Assembly (NCBI GenBank): GCA_963514005.1
Contig: OY740801.1
Location: forward strand, 27,156,001-27,220,000
Source: Raja brachyura
Lineage: Eukaryota
Direction: 5' to 3'
Length of the DNA: 64,000 bases
The first letter of the stretch is position 1, and each line of letters starts with the position of its first letter. Below, one piece after another: positions 1,879-64,000 of the stretch. Below the pieces are notes generated by a model. The model had not been told where the DNA came from. It saw only the letters and a list, made by a program, of their open reading frames with translations, and did no database searches. A program made the translations under genes and the position numbers.

Positions 1879-2104
1879 TTAGGCTCTGGAACACGACACA
1901 ACTCTAATCACAGCAGCTGTGGACATCTATGGACTTCTTTGTTTGCATGACAGACTTCAGCTTTTGCACTATTGTGGTTACCATAACATACATTTATTGT
2001 ATTTTGGATTATATATTATTTGTGCTCTATTACATTTACAAGTCTCTTAAACTGCAGCAAGAATGAATTTCATTGCTCTGTTCTTGGTACATATGACTAT
2101 TAAA

Positions 2105-3112
2105 CCAGTGGGGTGCCTCAGGGATCTGTGTTGGGTCCACTGTTGTTTGTCATGTACATCAATGATCTAGATGATGGGGTGGAAAATTGGATAAGTAAGT
2201 ATGCAGATGATACTAAGATAGGTGGTGCTGTGGATAATGAAGTAGATTTTCAAAGTCTACAGAGAGATTTGGGCCATTTGGAAGAGTGGGCTGAAAGATG
2301 GCAGATGGAGTTTAATGCTGATAAGTGTGAGGTGCTACATCTTGGCAGCACAAATCAAAATAGGATGTACATGGTAAATGGTAGGGAATTGAGGAATGCT
2401 GTGCAACAGAGGGATCTAGGAATAACTGTGCATAGTTCCCTGAAGGTAGAATCACATGTAGATAGGGTGGTAAAGAAAGCTTTTGGTGTGCTGGCCTTTA
2501 TAAATCAGAGCATTGAATATAGGAGTAGGGAAGTAATGTTAAAATTGTACAAGGCATTGGTGAGACCAATTATGGAGTATGGTGTACAATTTTGGTCGCC
2601 TAATTATAGGAAGGATGTCAATAAAATAGAGAGAGTACAGAGGAGATTTACTAGAATGTTGCCTGGGTTCCAGCAACTAAGTTACAGAGAAAGGTTGAAC
2701 AAGTTAGGTCTTTATTCTTTGGAGCGCAGAAGGTTAAGGGGGGACTTGATTGAGGTCTTTAAAATGATGAAAGGGATACACAGAGTTGACGTGGATAAGC
2801 TTTCCCCATTGAGGGTAGGGAAGATTCAAACAAGAGGGCACGACATGGGAACTAAGGGACAGAAGTTTAGGGGTAACATGAGGGGGAACTTCTTTACTCA
2901 GAGAGTGGTGGCTGTGTGGAATGATCTTCCAGCAGAAGTGGTGGAGGCAGGATCGATTTTAACATTTAAAAGTAAAGTGGATAGGTATATGGACGGGAAG
3001 GGAATGGAGGGGTATGGTCTGAGTGCAGGTAGATGGGACTAGGGGAAAATAAATGTTCAACACGGACTAGAAGGGCCGAGAAGGCCTGTTTCCGTGCTGT
3101 AATTGTTATATG
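2105..3112 (+). mobile_element. 5'-truncated CR1 LINE with uninterrupted ORF2 C-terminus
   Basis: ORF 2113-3042 with GVPQGSVLGP, YADD and LYSLERRRLRGDLIEVFK. The 3' UTR has the GGCC...GGCCTGTTTCC stem-loop motif. Confidence 0.95.
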
Positions 3113-5575: not shown

Positions 5576-5885
5576 TTAAAGTTTATAAGCATTACTCATG
5601 CAGGCACGTTGGTCACAAACGCAAAGTAATTGAATTTATGAAAGCAAATCGAAGGACTTTTATCTATAATCGCTAAATATAGTGAAGAAGGAGTGAAGGA
5701 GTTTTGGTGGTTGTGATAAAATTGGTGGATAAGTACAACAACAATGTACCCTTACAAATAGAGCTTTAGAATTGCATTTCTACAGCAAGTTGATCAGTAA
5801 TCCTATCTGCAATATATCATAAGTACATTTTAGACTTTGACGTCCCGAAAAAAAATTGAGCAAAAGCTCTTTTGTACTTTATATA

Positions 5886-7090
5886 AGCGAGTTTAGTATT
5901 CTGAAAAATGCAAGGAATCATGGGATTTCATCAAAGGTTGAATGCTATACATTAAAATCAAACAAAGCGCTGTAGATTCAGTGAGTATAGCTTGGGTCCG
6001 ATTTTTTGTCTTTTTTTCAGTGGGAGACCGGGGGAGGGGGGGGACCCGCAACCCTGGAGTTCCTCCACTCTCCCCCCCCCCCCCCCAACCACACACTCGA
6101 GTGTGCCATCCCCGCCCGGGAGGGGGCAGCCAGAGACGTCCGGACTGACGGGACACAGGCCCAGCGCAGAGTAGCGCCAACCCAGGCATGATATTCACTT
6201 CCAGAAAAAAAAGGACGGTGTATTGGCCAGGAGTCCGGGAGGCCGATTAGCCCCCCCCCCCCCCCCCCCATCCCCTGTGAGGGTTCAGGGAGCTCCTGCA
6301 TTTTCAATAAGTTGAAAGTGATTCCCAAGCTTTCTGCTGGTAGCTTAGAATTTTTCTAACACATAACCAGTAAAATAACCCCCAAAAGATAAATATTTCA
6401 TGAAATAAATGACTTCATACAGCTAAAAAAATCTTTACAAAAACGTTACCTGAAATGTCTCTTTGCCTTGCACTGTGTGTAAACAGAAAAAGTGATTTTG
6501 GCTGCAGCCATCTTCTGCTTCAGTAAGGGAAGCTGGTCGGTGATTGGCCGCAACAGCCCTCGGACCCGGCGCTAGACTGGGCCGCGCTGCAGGCGGCCTT
6601 CAGTCCAGACCTGGAGTTAGAGCTGGCCCGGACTCTGGGCTTGGGGCTGGGCAAGGGAGGGGGAGAAGGTTGCTGCCCCCGCCAGCACCACCATCACCAA
6701 CGGTACCCGCAGCTCCAGCGGGCGCCCGGCCTTCCATGGCCGGCAGGAGCCCATCTGCAGACTCTCCTGCTGAAGATGGCCAGCGGCTGCCCATCTTCAT
6801 CTCGGTGGATCGCAGGATCTCGGTGTCAGACTGAGGGGAGGGGGGGTGGAGGTGGAGGGCTGCCGGGTCAACCCGGAGGGACAGGCAGAGCCGAGCTGGA
6901 GCCAGGGCCACCCCGGACAGGGACGGGGACGGCCCAACAGCAACTCAACAGCACCCGCAGCGACGGAGAGCCGACCCCGACCACGGACGAAACGCAAGCC
7001 TGCAAACAATGCAGCACCACCATTGCCAAGACTGTTTTATAGCTAGTGACCTATGACTTGGGCATGCGCAGACGGAAAACCGAACTCGCT
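5886..7090 (+). mobile_element. Putative non-autonomous TIR DNA transposon carrying a ZFP36-family gene fragment
   Basis: Imperfect TIRs AGCGAGTTTAGTATTCTG (5886) and CGGAAAACCGAACTCGCT (ending 7090), each flanked by TA. Internal blocks are homologous to 28120-29020. Confidence 0.55.
6650..6834 (+). pseudogene. ZFP36/TIS11-family C-terminal fragment (copy 1)
   Basis: ...SPSADSPAEDGQRLPIFISVDRRISVSD-stop resembles the RLPIFxRISVSE/D C-terminus of TTP-family proteins. No zinc fingers in this copy. Confidence 0.75.
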
Positions 7091-7551
7091 TACTGCAGGA
7101 ACATATTTTCAGACAAAGATGGTAAAAAAATTTACTAAAACATGCAAACTGGTTGTTATAATTATGAGTTTTTAAAAAATATTTTAATCACAATATTCCA
7201 TATCAAGTCCATATTTTATTAGCTAAAATATATGAAACAAAAGTTTGCTGATAACAGAAGCACTTCTCTCTCACTCTTTCAATATGAAAAAAATAATGCC
7301 CAAATGAGAATTTGCTATGTTGTACAAATACAATAAACAGTAAAATTTGGTTGCAATACCCTTCATTAATTCATTAAGCGTTATTCATTCTGAATGATTA
7401 CTGAATTGATTCAAACGGCATCATTAAGACTGCTAACATTTTATCCTAACTTTTTGTTAAATCTGAGACAAATTTGGAAGACACAAACACACAAGGAATA
7501 AATAAACCATTAATTTGAATAACAAATGAATGTCATCAAGTATTCGTCCTA

Positions 7552-7644
<93 letters not shown>

Positions 7645-10318: not shown

Positions 10319-10492
<174 letters not shown>

Positions 10493-51767: not shown

Positions 51768-53370
51768 TATAACCATATAACCATATAACAATTACACACG
51801 GAAACAGGCCTTCTCGGCCCTTCCAGTCCGTGCCGACCATTTATTTTCCCCTAGTCCCATCTACCTGCACTCAGACCATACCCCTCCATTCCCTTTCCGT
51901 CCATATACCTATCCACTTTACTTTTAAATGTTAAAATCGATCCTGCCTCCACCACTTCTGCTGGAAGATCATTCCACACAGCCACCACTCTCTGAGTAAA
52001 GAAGTTCCCCCTCATGTTACCCCTAAACGACTGTCCCTTAATTCTCATGTCATGCCCTCTTGTTTGAATCTTCCCTACCCTCAATGGGAAAAGCTTATCC
52101 ACGTCAACTCTGTCTATCCCTTTCATCATTTTAAAGACCTCAATCAAGTCCCCCCTTAACCTTCTGCGCTCCAAAGAATAAAGACCTAACTTGTTTAACC
52201 TTTCTCTGTAACTTAGTTGCTGGAACCCAGGCAACATTCTAGTAAATCTCTTCTGTACTCTCTCTATTTTGTTGACATCCTTCCTATAATTAGGCGACCA
52301 AAATTGTACACCATACTCCAGAATTGGTCTCACCAATGCCATGTACAATTTTAACATTACTTCCCTACTCCTATATTCAATGCTCTGATTTATAAAGGCC
52401 AGCACACCAAAAGCTTTCTTTACCACCCTATCTACATGCGATTCCACCTTCAGGGAACGATGCACAGTTATTCCTAGATCCCTCTGTTCCACAGCATTCC
52501 TCAATTCCCTACCATTTACCATGTACGTCCTATTTTGATTTGTCCTGCCAAGATGTAACACCTCACACTTATCAGCATTAAACTCCATCTGCCATCTTTC
52601 AGCCCACTCTTCCAAATGGCCCAAATCTCTCTGTAGACTTTGAAAATCTACTTCATTATCCACAGCACCACCTATCTTAGTATCATCTGCATACTTACTT
52701 ATCCGATTTTCCACCCCATCATCCAGATCATTGATGTACATGACAAACAACAGTGGACCCAACACAGATCCCTGAGGCACCCCACTGGTCACCGGCTTCC
52801 AACCTGACAAACAGCCATCCACCATTACTCTCTGGCATCTCCTATTCAGCCACTGTTGAATCCATCTTGCTCCTCCGCCATTAACACCCAAAGATTGAAC
52901 CTTCTTAACCAACCTTCCATGGGGAACCTTGTCAAAGGCCTTACTGAAATCCATATAGACAACATCCACTGCTTTACCCTCATCAATTTCCCTAGTAACC
53001 TCTTCCAAAAATTCAAGAAGCTTTGTCAAACATGACCTTCCAGGCACAAATCCATGTTGACTGTTCTTGATCAGACCCTGTTTATCCAAATGCTTATATA
53101 TATTATCGCTAAGTATCCTTTCCATTAATTTGCCCACCACTGACATCAAACTAACAGGTCTATAATTGCTAGGTTTATTCTTTGAACCCTTTTTAAACAA
53201 TGGAACAACATGCGCAGTACGCCAATCCTCCGGCACTATTCCCGTTTCTAATGACATTTGAAATATTTCTGTCATAGCCCCTGCTATTTCTACACTAACT
53301 TCCCTCAATGTTCTAGGGAATATCCTGTCAGGACCTGGAGACTTATCCACTTTTATATTTTTCAAAAGTG
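51768..53370 (-). mobile_element. 5'-truncated CR1 LINE with uninterrupted 504-aa RT ORF
   Basis: ORF 51851-53365 has the full RT motifs (KSPGPD, NYRPVSL, QHGF, DFSKAFD, PQGSVLGP, YADD) and a (GGTTATAT)n tail. Nested in an older CR1 remnant. Confidence 0.96.
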
Positions 53371-55673: not shown

Positions 55674-56724
55674 AGAGTGGCGGCGCTGCTTGGCAGCTGC
55701 GGCTCACCTGCAGTCCATCTGTCTTTTATTTTATTTTTGTCCTCGTCCCTGTTTTTGGTGTTTATTTTTGGTTTGTTGGGTTATGTATGTGTGGGGGGGG
55801 GGAGAAACGGGGTTTTAGTCTCTCCCTTCGGGGGGATGCGACTTTTCCTGTCGTGTCCCCCGACACCGTCTCCGTCTGTGCTGAGGCCCTGGTGACGGCC
55901 TTCCAGCTTCCAGCGGCGGCGGCACGGCCTTCAGAGCTTCAGCGGCGACCTGGCTTCCGGCAGCGACCTGGTTTTCGGGAGCTGCGGTGCTTCAACGGCG
56001 GCCTGGCTCCCTCTGAGCTGCGGTGCTCCAGCGGCGGCCTGGCTCCCTCTGAGCTGCGGTGCTCCAGCGGCGGCCTGGCTCCCTCTGAGCTGCGATGCTC
56101 CAGCGGCGGCCTGGCTCCCTCTGAGCTGCGGTGCTCCAGCGGCGGCCTGGGTTTCGGGAGCTGCGGTGCTCCAGCGGCGACCTGGGTTTCGGGAGCTGCG
56201 GTGCTCCAGCGGCGGCCTGGCTTTCGGGAGCTGCGGTGCTCCAGCGGCGGCTTGGGTTTCGGGAGCTGCGGTGCTCCAGCGGCGACCTGGCTTTCGGGAG
56301 CTGCGGTGCTCCAGCGGCGGCCTGGCTTTCGGGAGCTGCGGTGCTCCAGCGGCGACCTGGGTTTCGGGAGCTGCGGTGCTCCAGCGGCGGCCTGGCTTTC
56401 GGGAGCTGCGGTGCTCCAGCGACGTTCCGGCGGCGGGCCCTGTGGCGGTGTTCCGGCATTCCGGCGTCAGCGGTGGCAGCGGCCTGGATCTCCTCAGCGC
56501 AGAGGGAGAATAAGGAGGGGAGAAAGACAGAGACCCTAAGACTTTTGCCTTCCACCACAGTGAGGAGGTGTTTGGTGAACTCACTGTGGTGGATGTTAAT
56601 TTTGTGTTTATTGTATGGTATTGTTATTTTTATATATGTATGACTGCAGGCACGAAATTTCGTTCAGACCGAAAGGTCTGAATGACAATAAAGGCATTCA
56701 ATTCAATTCAATTCAATTCAATTT
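55674..56724 (+). mobile_element. GC-rich non-autonomous retroelement containing a minisatellite
   Basis: Flanked by a GGACTTT direct repeat (55667-55673, 56725-56731). Ends with the stem-loop TTCAGACC-GAAA-GGTCTGAA, AATAAA and (ATTCA)n. Confidence 0.75.
55934..56421 (+). repeat. 35/36-bp GC-rich minisatellite
   Basis: About 13 units of GAGCTGCGGTGCTCCAGCGGCGGCCTGGCTTTCGG (35 bp) or ...CTGGCTCCCTCT (36 bp). Confidence 0.95.
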
Positions 56725-61884: not shown

Positions 61885-62378
61885 TGCTCTACATCGGTGA
61901 GACCAAGTGAAGGCTTGGCGATCGCTTCGTCCAACACCTCCGCACAGTTTGTATTAACGAACCTGATCTCCCGGTGGCTCAGCGCTTCAACTTCCCCTCC
62001 CATTCCGTATCCGACCTTTCTGTCCTGGGCGTCCTCCATGGCCAGAGTGACTCCCACCGCAAATTGGAGGAGCAGCACCTCATATTTTGCTTGGGTACAT
62101 TACACCCCATGTATGAACATTGACTTCTCCAATTTCAGGTAGTCCTTGCTTTCTCCCTCCTTCCCCTCCCCTCCCCAGCTCCCCCACAGCCCACTGTCTC
62201 CGCCTTCCTTTCTTCTTCCCGCCCACCCCCCCGCCCACCCTCACATCAGTCTGAAGAAGGGTCTCGACCCGAAACGTGACCCATTCCTTCGCTCCATAGA
62301 TGCTGCCTCACCCGCTGAGTTTCTCCAGCATTTTTGTCTACCTTCGATTTTTGCAACAACTGCAATTCTTTCTTAAAC
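61885..62378 (+). mobile_element. Penelope-like element 3' end (GIY-YIG C-terminus and terminal repeat)
   Basis: LYIGETK...KLEEQHLIF remnants, then CTGAAGAAGGGTCTCGACCCGAAACGTGACC at 62251-62281. Confidence 0.88.
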
Positions 62379-62834
62379 ATTACCTGCCATGCTGTGTCTG
62401 CTGCCGCTCTTCCAGTTTTCTTCCCCTCCCCCCACTTGCAATCAGTCTGAAGTTGGATTCCAACCTGAAATGTCATCATCCATATTCTCCAGAGATGCTG
62501 CCTGACCTGCTGAGTTACTCCAGCACTTTGTGTCTTTTTTTGTAATCCAGCATCTGCAGTTCTTTGTTTCTACAAGTGAGCTGAGATGTTTGATATTTGT
62601 GATGCTGTTGCCCATCAGTGATCTTAATCAACACGGTTTGATAATTCTCCTTGGACTCCTAGAGTTCCATAACATGGAAACTGACCCTTCGGGTCAACTC
62701 ATACATGTTGCCTGACTTGAGCTAGTATAACTTACCTGCGCCACTTCAAAATGATTCCATGCACAGCCTTTTATTTAATTGCATTGCAAATGTGGGGAGA
62801 TGCCACATTGAAACAAACCCATTACAATGGATTT

Positions 62835-64000
62835 GTTTAAGAAAGAACTGCAGATGCTGGAAAAATCGAAGGTAGACAAAAATGCTGGAGAAACTCAGCG
62901 GGTGAGGCAGCATCTATGGAGCAGTGGAATAGGTGAAGTTTTGAGTCGAGACCCTTCTTCAGACAGATGTGGGGGGGGGGGGATGGGCGGGAAGAAGAAA
63001 GGAAGATGCGGAGACAGTGGGCTGTGGGAGAACTGGGAAGGGGAGGGGAAGGAGGGAGAAAGCAAGGACTTCCTGAAACTGGAGAAGTCAATGTTCGTAC
63101 AGCTAGGGTGTAAACTACCCAAGCGAAATATGAGGTGCTGCTCCTCCAATTTGCGGTGGGACTCACTCTGGCCATGGAGGATGCCCAGGACAGAAAGGTC
63201 GGATTCAGAATGGGAGGGGGAATTGAAGTGCTGAGCCACCGGGAGATCGGGTTGGTTAGTGCGGACTGAGCAGAGGTGTTGGGCGAAGCGATCGCCAAGC
63301 CTGCACTTGGTCTCACCGATGTAGAGCAGTTGACACATAAAACAGCGGATGCAATAGATGAGGTTGGAGGAGGTGCAGGTGAACCTCTGCCACACCTGGA
63401 AAGACTGCTTGGGTCCTTGGATGGAGTTGAGCGGGGCAGGTAAAGAGACGAGTGTAGCATTTCCTGCAGTTGCAAGGGAAAGTACCAGGGGAGGCGGTGG
63501 TTTGGATGGGAAGGGACAAATTGACCAGGGAGTTACAGAGGGAGCGGTCTCTGCGGAAAGCCAAAAGTGTCGGAGATGAGAAGATCTGGCCAGTGGTAGG
63601 ATGCCATTGGAGGTGGGCGAAAATGTCAGAGGATTATCTGTTGTATGTGACGGCTGGTAGGGTGGAAGGTGAGGACAAGGGGGACGCTGCCCTTGTTACA
63701 AGTGGGGGTATGGGGAATGAGAGCGGAGCTACGGGATATAGAGGAGACCCTGGTGAAAGACTCATCTATAGTCGAAGAGGGGAACCCCCGATCCCTAAAG
63801 AATGAGGTCATCTCCGATGCCCTGGTTTGGAACACCTCATCCTGGGTGCAGATGCGGCGTAGACGGAGGAATTAGGAGGTGGAGATAGAGTCCTTACAGG
63901 AAGCAGGGTGGGAAGAAGTATAGTCCAGATAGCCATGGGAGTCAGTGGGTTTGTAGTAGATGTCGGTCAGTAGTCTGTTTCCTGCGATGGAGATAGTGAG
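62835..64000 (-). mobile_element. Penelope-like retroelement (RT thumb, GIY-YIG, terminal repeat), runs off the window
   Basis: TDIYYKPTDSHGYLDYTSSHP...FLRLRRIC and FTCTSSNLIYCIRC...LYIGETKCRLGDRFAQH...KLEEQHLIFRLG, with stops and frameshifts. Confidence 0.92.

Follow-up and report, generated by a model that had tools for sequence, protein, structure and literature searches.

An element at positions 5885-7091 of the window (the whole 64,000-nucleotide stretch of Raja brachyura DNA that was analysed) belongs to a family of non-autonomous DNA transposons, of which it is a decayed copy. The family is very probably of ISL2EU type and carries 551 bp of a host ZFP36-family gene, a fragment that was likely captured by template switching and likely spread in trans by the transposase of a 4.2-kb partner. 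The sequence comparisons give good support to the view that the family is a high-copy case of a known phenomenon, the animal Pack-TIR, and an evolutionary relic. A non-autonomous family of gene-carrying DNA transposons had been proposed in an earlier note on this DNA, and the proposal was borne out by an intact donor gene and at least 145 cargo copies. The bounds given there (5886..7090) were correctly placed at inverted repeats, and the exact ends are 5885 and 7091. The following features were identified in the window.

5883-5884, no strand: left target-site dinucleotide AT, recognized from the flanks of two-ended copies and from empty-site gaps
5885-5904, plus strand: left terminal inverted repeat, 20 bp; the consensus end is identical in the autonomous-type element L182
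5885-6019, plus strand: left end of autonomous ISL2EU origin, corresponding to the end that precedes the YqaJ gene; consensus 1-135 matches L182 at 116/135 positions
6020-6182, plus strand: what remains of the left inner arm (GC-rich), part of which has been deleted in the window copy
6183-6564, plus strand: leftmost 380 bp of another, unrelated element (about 640 bp in full, CAGGCATGATATTC ends, target duplications of 6 bp)
6558-6855, plus strand: captured ZFP36-family exon-2 sequence with indels (donor L133:1652-1992; 186/217 and 39/44 identical to the donor)
6856-6981, plus strand: GC-rich right inner arm with a decayed SINE-like head
6982-7091, plus strand: right end of autonomous origin, corresponding to the end that precedes the transposase gene; 88/111 identical to L182
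7072-7091: right terminal inverted repeat, within the right end of the element
7092-7093, no strand: right target-site dinucleotide, AC in the window copy
7555-7644, minus strand: PRKAR1B-like coding exon just upstream, in gene direction, of the element's intron (tblastn, 30/30 identical to P0122)
10319-10492, minus strand: PRKAR1B-like coding exon
28121-29031, plus strand: second family copy, both ends gone (consensus 133-723 and 853-1218 at 84%)
29748-29915, minus strand: PRKAR1B-like coding exon

The GC-rich block of 1.2 kb that the earlier note had described is evident from the composition (GC 0.595 in 6001-7000 versus 0.40 and 0.33 in the neighbouring kilobases), as are its imperfect inverted repeats, the two quoted terminal 20-mers being identical at 16/20 positions. 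The 6183-6564 portion of the block is a fragment of an unrelated transposon. Positions 5884-6043 show 91% identity with the family consensus. In full copies a decayed SINE-like head is part of the left inner arm, which is related to the right arm in inverted orientation; the left arm has also been detected in sister elements without cargo. The window copy lacks the right part of the nested CAGGCATGATATTC-ended element along with the zinc-finger part of the cargo, and the fragment of the nested element overlaps the cargo match by 7 bp (6558-6564). The nested element of about 640 bp, which may be hAT-like, is abundant in its own right, with 2,543 first-look candidates (host family included) and loci L003-L030. 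The window cargo frame ends in RLPIFISVDRRISVSD followed by the stop codon at 6832-6834. The tristetraprolin C-terminal frame reported earlier is thus present, and its NOT1-binding motif is split by a 4-residue insertion. Only about 135 bp on the left and 111 bp on the right derive from the autonomous element, and no transposase is encoded, as had been noted.

The cargo of the second copy lies at 28515-28913 and includes half of finger 1 and a frameshifted finger 2; no terminal repeat match was found near this copy. The sharing of sequence between the window element and this cassette at 28.1-29.0 kb, which had been pointed out before, amounts to 70% over 288 columns (E 7e-35). The location in a PRKAR1B intron was likewise upheld. 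The element is intronic and antisense to a PRKAR1B-like gene, because the coding exons flanking it are on the minus strand and the next exon lies about 28 kb before the window start. The PRKAR1B-like gene harbours at least two further family copies, one at G000:C21:27121.3-27122.2 kb (L230, L259) and the one at window 28121-29031, and more family fragments are found near 27126-27129 kb. Other repeats in the window include a 993-bp inverted pair at 2104-3096 and 51797-52789 (97%), a nested inverted arrangement near 62-63 kb (61885-63328), and a tandem array with a 35-36-bp unit at 55943-56472.

The family was characterized in the 2.7-Gb skate genome, whose proteins are closest to those of skates (Leucoraja 95%, Rhinoraja 83%). 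Genome searches with the right half, the left end and the cassette gave 1,439, 843 and 1,701 first-look candidates, respectively, of which only 40 were scored in each search; the element therefore has many copies rather than one or two, as a family of this kind would be expected to have. In both end searches the homology between copies begins and stops at the terminal inverted repeats, so that neither of the outcomes named in the earlier note as refuting its proposal was observed. In a set of 255 loci, 104 left ends and 111 right ends proved distinct, and 75 copies, spread over many contigs, have both ends. The length of a full copy is about 1.4 kb, and most of the 35 copies compared differ from the consensus by 8-15% (range 7.5-24%). 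The imperfect repeats of the window copy correspond to a perfect inverted repeat in the consensus, 21/21 counting a shared T and 20 bp without it, and the 20-bp repeat is likewise perfect in L182.

The earlier note had read the flanking TA as a target-site duplication. For the gap analysis the element was taken as AAGCG...CGCTT. AT is present on both sides in 54/75 two-ended copies, and the outer A is found at 77/104 left ends and 86/111 right ends. At 5/6 informative insertions, all in copies that landed inside other repeats, the empty paralogous site is 2 bp shorter than the summed flanks and reads A-AT-T; one empty-site match (L207, an eroded copy) has a gap of 0. The A-AT-T empty sites fit a 2-bp AT duplication. 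A TA duplication of the Tc1/mariner type, which would need empty sites 2 bp longer than those seen, was rejected. The duplicated dinucleotide is most probably AT, not TA, and the element is therefore assigned to ISL2EU rather than to a mariner-like family.

The same gaps are compatible with ends reading TAAG...CTTA and a blunt, duplication-free insertion between A and T like that of Spy, since the gap analysis cannot separate blunt insertion from AT duplication. This interpretation is decidedly unlikely. It draws on the 21/75 two-ended copies without AT on both sides, in which mismatches seldom co-vary between the sides (2 concordant non-AT pairs), and on four copies, the window copy included, that have AT on the left and AC on the right. 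Both dinucleotide positions, however, vary by about 10-12%, compared with 3.9% for A/T sites inside the ends, as expected of bases derived from the target, and the partner element has the ISL2EU gene set (THAP transposase and YqaJ). Spy is described as having one gene without THAP, AAA|TTT targets and GGA ends (PMC4122938). Membership of the skate family in Spy (PHIS) was rejected, as target, ends and gene content all disagree.

The earlier note had suggested looking for an autonomous element with the same ends, and an element with these ends and with transposase remnants was found. A genome search for HTH_Tnp_4 gave 28 matches over the cut-off among 150 scored, and six of 20 HTH_Tnp_4 loci (10 kb each) had ends like those of the cargo family. 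Locus L182 contains a 4.16-kb element with identical 21-nt ends and with subterminal identities of 116/135 (86%) and 88/111 (79%). This element encodes a broken transposase (HTH_Tnp_4, E 1e-10) and, convergent to it on the minus strand at L182:5652-6239, a YqaJ gene (PF09588, E 2.9e-11). L182 and L176 both contain decayed transposase homologues between the shared ends, and L182 matches the 542-residue frame of L166 (tblastn), of which 542 codons are open and in which THAP, HTH_Tnp_4 and DDE_Tnp_4 are all over the cut-off. Judged from these predicted proteins, the THAP-HTH-DDE transposase and YqaJ together are the ISL2EU (PHIS) gene set. Given the 79-86% likeness of its ends to those of the family, L182 itself is regarded as related to the true partner.

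Among the best 120 of 307 homologues of the transposase, nearly all have HTH_Tnp_4 and DDE_Tnp_4, and many also have THAP. The only named cartilaginous fish in this set are two skates; the next homologues are from oyster, echinoderms, amphioxus and a few teleosts at about 45-53%. This distribution hints at a horizontal entry of ISL2EU into skates, with the qualification that many homologues carry no species name. Several other transposase loci were observed. A 527-codon frame at L166:4087-5667 (G000:C16, about 2.678 Mb) is fully open and is also open in Leucoraja erinacea (503/527 identical); no terminal repeats are nearby, and its siblings are broken. Domestication of L166 was considered, but its substitution ratio (0.64) resembles those of its decayed siblings (0.46-1.48) and gives no signal of it. 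Loci L168, L172, L173, L174, L178 and L184 belong to a second HTH_Tnp_4/DDE_Tnp_4 family of many copies, with 33% identity to L166. An interrupted HTH_Tnp_4 frame at L167:4513-6543 is unlike both transposon families and may be an old domesticated gene.

The donor of the cargo was identified at locus L133 on contig C40, an intact two-exon gene that was among ten sites given by a looser pattern search. Consensus 561-1090 matches donor exon 2 (L133:1442-1992) at 513/551 columns. The cargo is thus 551 bp of exon 2, which begins after the second cysteine of zinc finger 1 and ends 22 bp past the stop codon. The earlier note had recognized the C-terminal part; in the family as a whole the captured stretch is considerably longer, reaching from the middle of finger 1 to past the stop. 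The donor encodes two CCCH fingers (two PF00642 stretches), and its C-terminus RRLPIFSRISVSD corresponds to RLPIFNRISVSE, the NOT1-binding motif of mouse TTP (mouse sequence from PMC8180021). Tandem CCCH fingers and a NOT1-binding C-terminus, which define the ZFP36 family, are therefore both present in the donor, and the carried copies do not have two intact zinc fingers. No terminal repeat was found in the 40 kb around the donor at 5 or fewer mismatches.

In a 24-row tree, which did not include mammalian TTP, the donor groups with ZFP36-like proteins of sharks and rays (97/99) and falls outside the clade of L1 and L2 from the same genome (100/99). By this placement the donor is a third ZFP36 paralogue, not L1 or L2, and a likely candidate for the tristetraprolin counterpart. 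ZFP36L1 and ZFP36L2, the only two genes that the first pattern search had found, were rejected as donors, being only 80-81% identical over the fingers.

The cargo copies are numerous. At least 145 distinct copies were counted by two de-duplication methods. An exact 24-base cargo word occurs 62 times in the genome, once in the donor, and is present in 7/93 copies found otherwise, which gives about 810 copies (binomial range, calculated by hand, roughly 400-2,000). A second estimate, restricted to copies with a preserved left end, is about 260 (345 left ends x 4/30 / (12/67)). Both estimates are rough and biased by which copies are easiest to find; the total is likely several hundred.

The copies diverge from the column majority by 19% at CpG and 6% at non-CpG sites, and outside CpG sites their identity to the donor is about 92%. 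Read in the ZFP36 frame, the cargo has a dN/dS-like ratio of 0.93, compared with 1.23 and 1.08 for the two remaining frames; a naive ratio of 0.73 rose to 0.93 once the mutation spectrum had been allowed for, and purifying selection was thereby rejected. By these measures the cargo copies are evolving neutrally. The claim that the family disperses pieces of an mRNA-decay regulator accordingly stands for the DNA only, as the pieces evolve neutrally. The first half of finger 1 is absent from all copies, the finger region is gone from the window copy, and no cargo copy has the whole donor frame. A deletion at the start of finger 2, which causes a frameshift, is common to 87/114 informative copies and absent from 27; the region is missing from 31/145 copies. 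On inspection by eye, compensating frameshifts leave about ten of the listed copies open between an arm ATG and the NOT1-binding tail, and one of these, L125, keeps finger 2 as well. The carried pieces are broken and most likely have no protein function. At the L125 / L078 locus (G000:C4, about 24.895 Mb), 160 codons stay open between the arm ATG and the NOT1-binding tail; they include an apparently intact finger 2 and an intervening stretch that is frameshifted, and this copy is the best candidate if any is translated.

The skew towards the finger-2 deletion could also be explained by a product of the first chimera. The chimera would have made a truncated ZFP36 protein (half of finger 1, finger 2 and the NOT1-binding tail) from the arm ATG, which is in frame with the cargo, and counter-selection would have favoured the frameshifted sub-lineage that now accounts for 87/114 informative copies, with 27 lacking the deletion. 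This explanation is extremely doubtful. The same ATG occurs in cargo-free sisters, where it alternates with ACG, and is therefore incidental; both finger-2 classes are equally diverged (median 7.6% for intact versus 8.1% for deleted); and internal deletions are common throughout the family, so that drift of a master copy explains the skew. Neutral decay of the cargo, with no protein function, is the preferred reading.

The window insertion is shared with related species. Contigs from two other organisms (X11, X18) span its left junction, and a third organism and all right junctions are just under the 31-base bridging rule. The window insertion predates a species split, because it is bridged elsewhere with flanks that differ from those of the window by a few percent. 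In three other organisms the read depth of the element is hundreds of times that of the flanks, a sign of the presence of the family and not a measure of its copy number.

The construction of the chimera can be followed in sister elements. Among exact matches to the left end, 4/30 loci have cargo and 26/30 do not, and many cargo-free sisters share the ends and the GC-rich arms. The sister non-autonomous elements form a clan (L266-L295; 345 left ends within one mismatch) with several types of interior, among them long fold-backs (L283) and a different AT-rich and GC-rich sequence (L266, L288, L290). The fold-back of L283 is 710 bp long and 72% self-complementary. A common SINE-like repeat has left decayed pieces in the arms. 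No second captured host gene was found in the arms, with no match among the fetched loci beyond SINE-like pieces and sister elements. The longest exact words shared by the arms and the donor region are 11-13 bases, a figure given without a shuffle control, and a search of Rfam with three loci gave one weak match far below its cut-off. At the start of the cargo, four cargo-free sisters read GCC or GCCG, as the donor does, which is a 3-4 bp microhomology at the left junction; at the right junction the microhomology is at most 2 bp and ambiguous.

The 3-4 bp microhomology fits template switching during repair, followed by transposition, a model that has been proposed for multicopy animal Pack-TIRs (PMC8277862). 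In the proposed sequence of events, an internally deleted derivative would have retained about 135 and about 110 bp of the partner ends and acquired inverted, GC-rich arms in which SINE-like pieces are found. A break inside this arm-bearing element would then have been repaired from the ZFP36 exon at the 3-4 bp microhomology, and the chimera would have become a master element that was amplified in trans. A sub-lineage with the 11-bp finger-2 frameshift may have produced most copies, and activity would have been over before several skate species split. In the window copy, a second transposon presumably entered and a later deletion took the finger region.

A template of ZFP36 mRNA, in the form of a retrocopy fragment or of RNA-templated repair, in place of genomic DNA, is unlikely. 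In its favour, the cargo contains exon sequence only, LINE remnants (as open reading frames) are plentiful in the genome, and SINE-like pieces are present in the arms. The missing intron is nonetheless uninformative: the cargo spans no intron and lies wholly inside one long exon, so that on this point a DNA and an RNA template are indistinguishable. An RNA template is less likely because there is no poly-A and the 3' untranslated region is left out, the match ending 22 bp past the stop although this region extends for about 880 bp in the donor. The microhomology at the left junction also argues for genomic DNA, which remains the preferred template.

The copies could act on the host gene as RNA, with transcription of the cargo from both sides giving rise to small RNAs that silence or tune ZFP36. 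Such an action is very unlikely. In its favour, the element has kept the ends that in L182 precede the YqaJ and transposase genes, the CpG decay shows that the copies were methylated, identity of the copies to the donor at non-CpG sites is about 92%, and a comparable conflict has been described for maize (bioRxiv 10.1101/777037). Promoter activity of the ends, however, is deduced from their position only, the copies show no sign of constraint, and the donor keeps an open frame, a CpG-rich exon and 83-88% identity to its skate relatives. In a fuller version, which is highly improbable, several hundred exon copies between two inward-facing putative ISL2EU promoters would feed silencing small RNAs and thereby regulate a tristetraprolin-type brake on inflammatory mRNAs, and the frameshifted sub-lineage would have been favoured as the in-frame product sequestered NOT1. 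If true, this would be a vertebrate conflict between a gene-capturing transposon and its donor gene. The family is better regarded as an evolutionary relic.

Plant Pack-MULEs are non-autonomous TIR elements with GC-rich gene fragments, mostly non-coding relics; they belong to the Mutator superfamily, produce 8-11 bp duplications and have many cargos at low copy each. The skate family is likewise a non-autonomous TIR element with a GC-rich gene fragment, whereas it has one high-copy cargo. The earlier note had described Pack-type capture as best known from plants, a statement to be amended in that TIR capture has also been described in animals (PMC8277862). A survey of 100 animal genomes identified 370 Pack-TIRs, four of them multicopy with examples of 3 and 5 copies; these were mostly hAT and Tc/mariner elements, with none from elephant shark in a screen limited to young cases (Tan et al. 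2021, PMC8277862). ISL2EU and ZFP36 are absent from the searched text and 12 supplementary files of that paper. The skate family resembles animal Pack-TIRs in having host sequence between TIR ends, an unlinked transposon-free parent gene, GC-rich cargo, distinct sites and a proposed template-switch origin (FoSTeST), and it differs from their multicopy examples of 3 and 5 copies (PMC8277862) in having at least 145. Transposon sequence is present on both sides of the cargo, the parental copy L133 (513/551) is free of the transposon, and repeated transposition is evident from 75 two-ended copies with unrelated flanks and their own target sites.

In copy number the family is similar to the Helitrons of vesper bats, vertebrate DNA transposons by which parts of host genes have been multiplied into the hundreds or thousands (28-1,381 copies in the case of non-promoter regions; Thomas et al. 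2014, PMC4224331). Bat Helitrons, in contrast, are rolling-circle elements without terminal inverted repeats and carry many genes (PMC4224331), whereas the skate family is cut-and-paste and carries one. ISL2EU elements have an A|AT|T target and terminal repeats of 6-259 bp, and their ends usually begin with GG, which is a tendency only (Han et al. 2015, PMC4482050). The skate family is like them in its A|AT|T target, 20-bp terminal repeats, partner of about 4.2 kb and predicted THAP-HTH-DDE transposase with YqaJ, and unlike them in having ends that begin AA. On target and predicted gene content its features are those of ISL2EU. ISL2EU has been reported from teleosts and was not found in elephant shark, gar or coelacanth in one survey (Etchegaray et al. 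2022, PMC9179366), in contrast to its abundance in the skate. No description of a gene-carrying ISL2EU was found in the literature searched, and the skate cargo family is undescribed where searched; Repbase, Dfam and most subscription journals were beyond reach, and the repeat library of the little skate may include the family unnamed.

The family shows that a captured coding exon can be multiplied several hundredfold by a cut-and-paste transposon in a vertebrate, a number far above that of the multicopy animal Pack-TIRs surveyed so far. It extends the range of ISL2EU to cartilaginous fish, in which one survey that covered elephant shark only did not find it. For work on skates there is a practical consequence, as the cargo copies will confound read mapping, primers and the annotation of ZFP36. 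In an animal, the family also makes it readily testable whether small RNAs directed at a transposon cross-silence the host gene that it has captured. Since the partner, the cargo-free sisters, the donor and the decayed copies are found in one genome, the steps of capture are traceable and datable.
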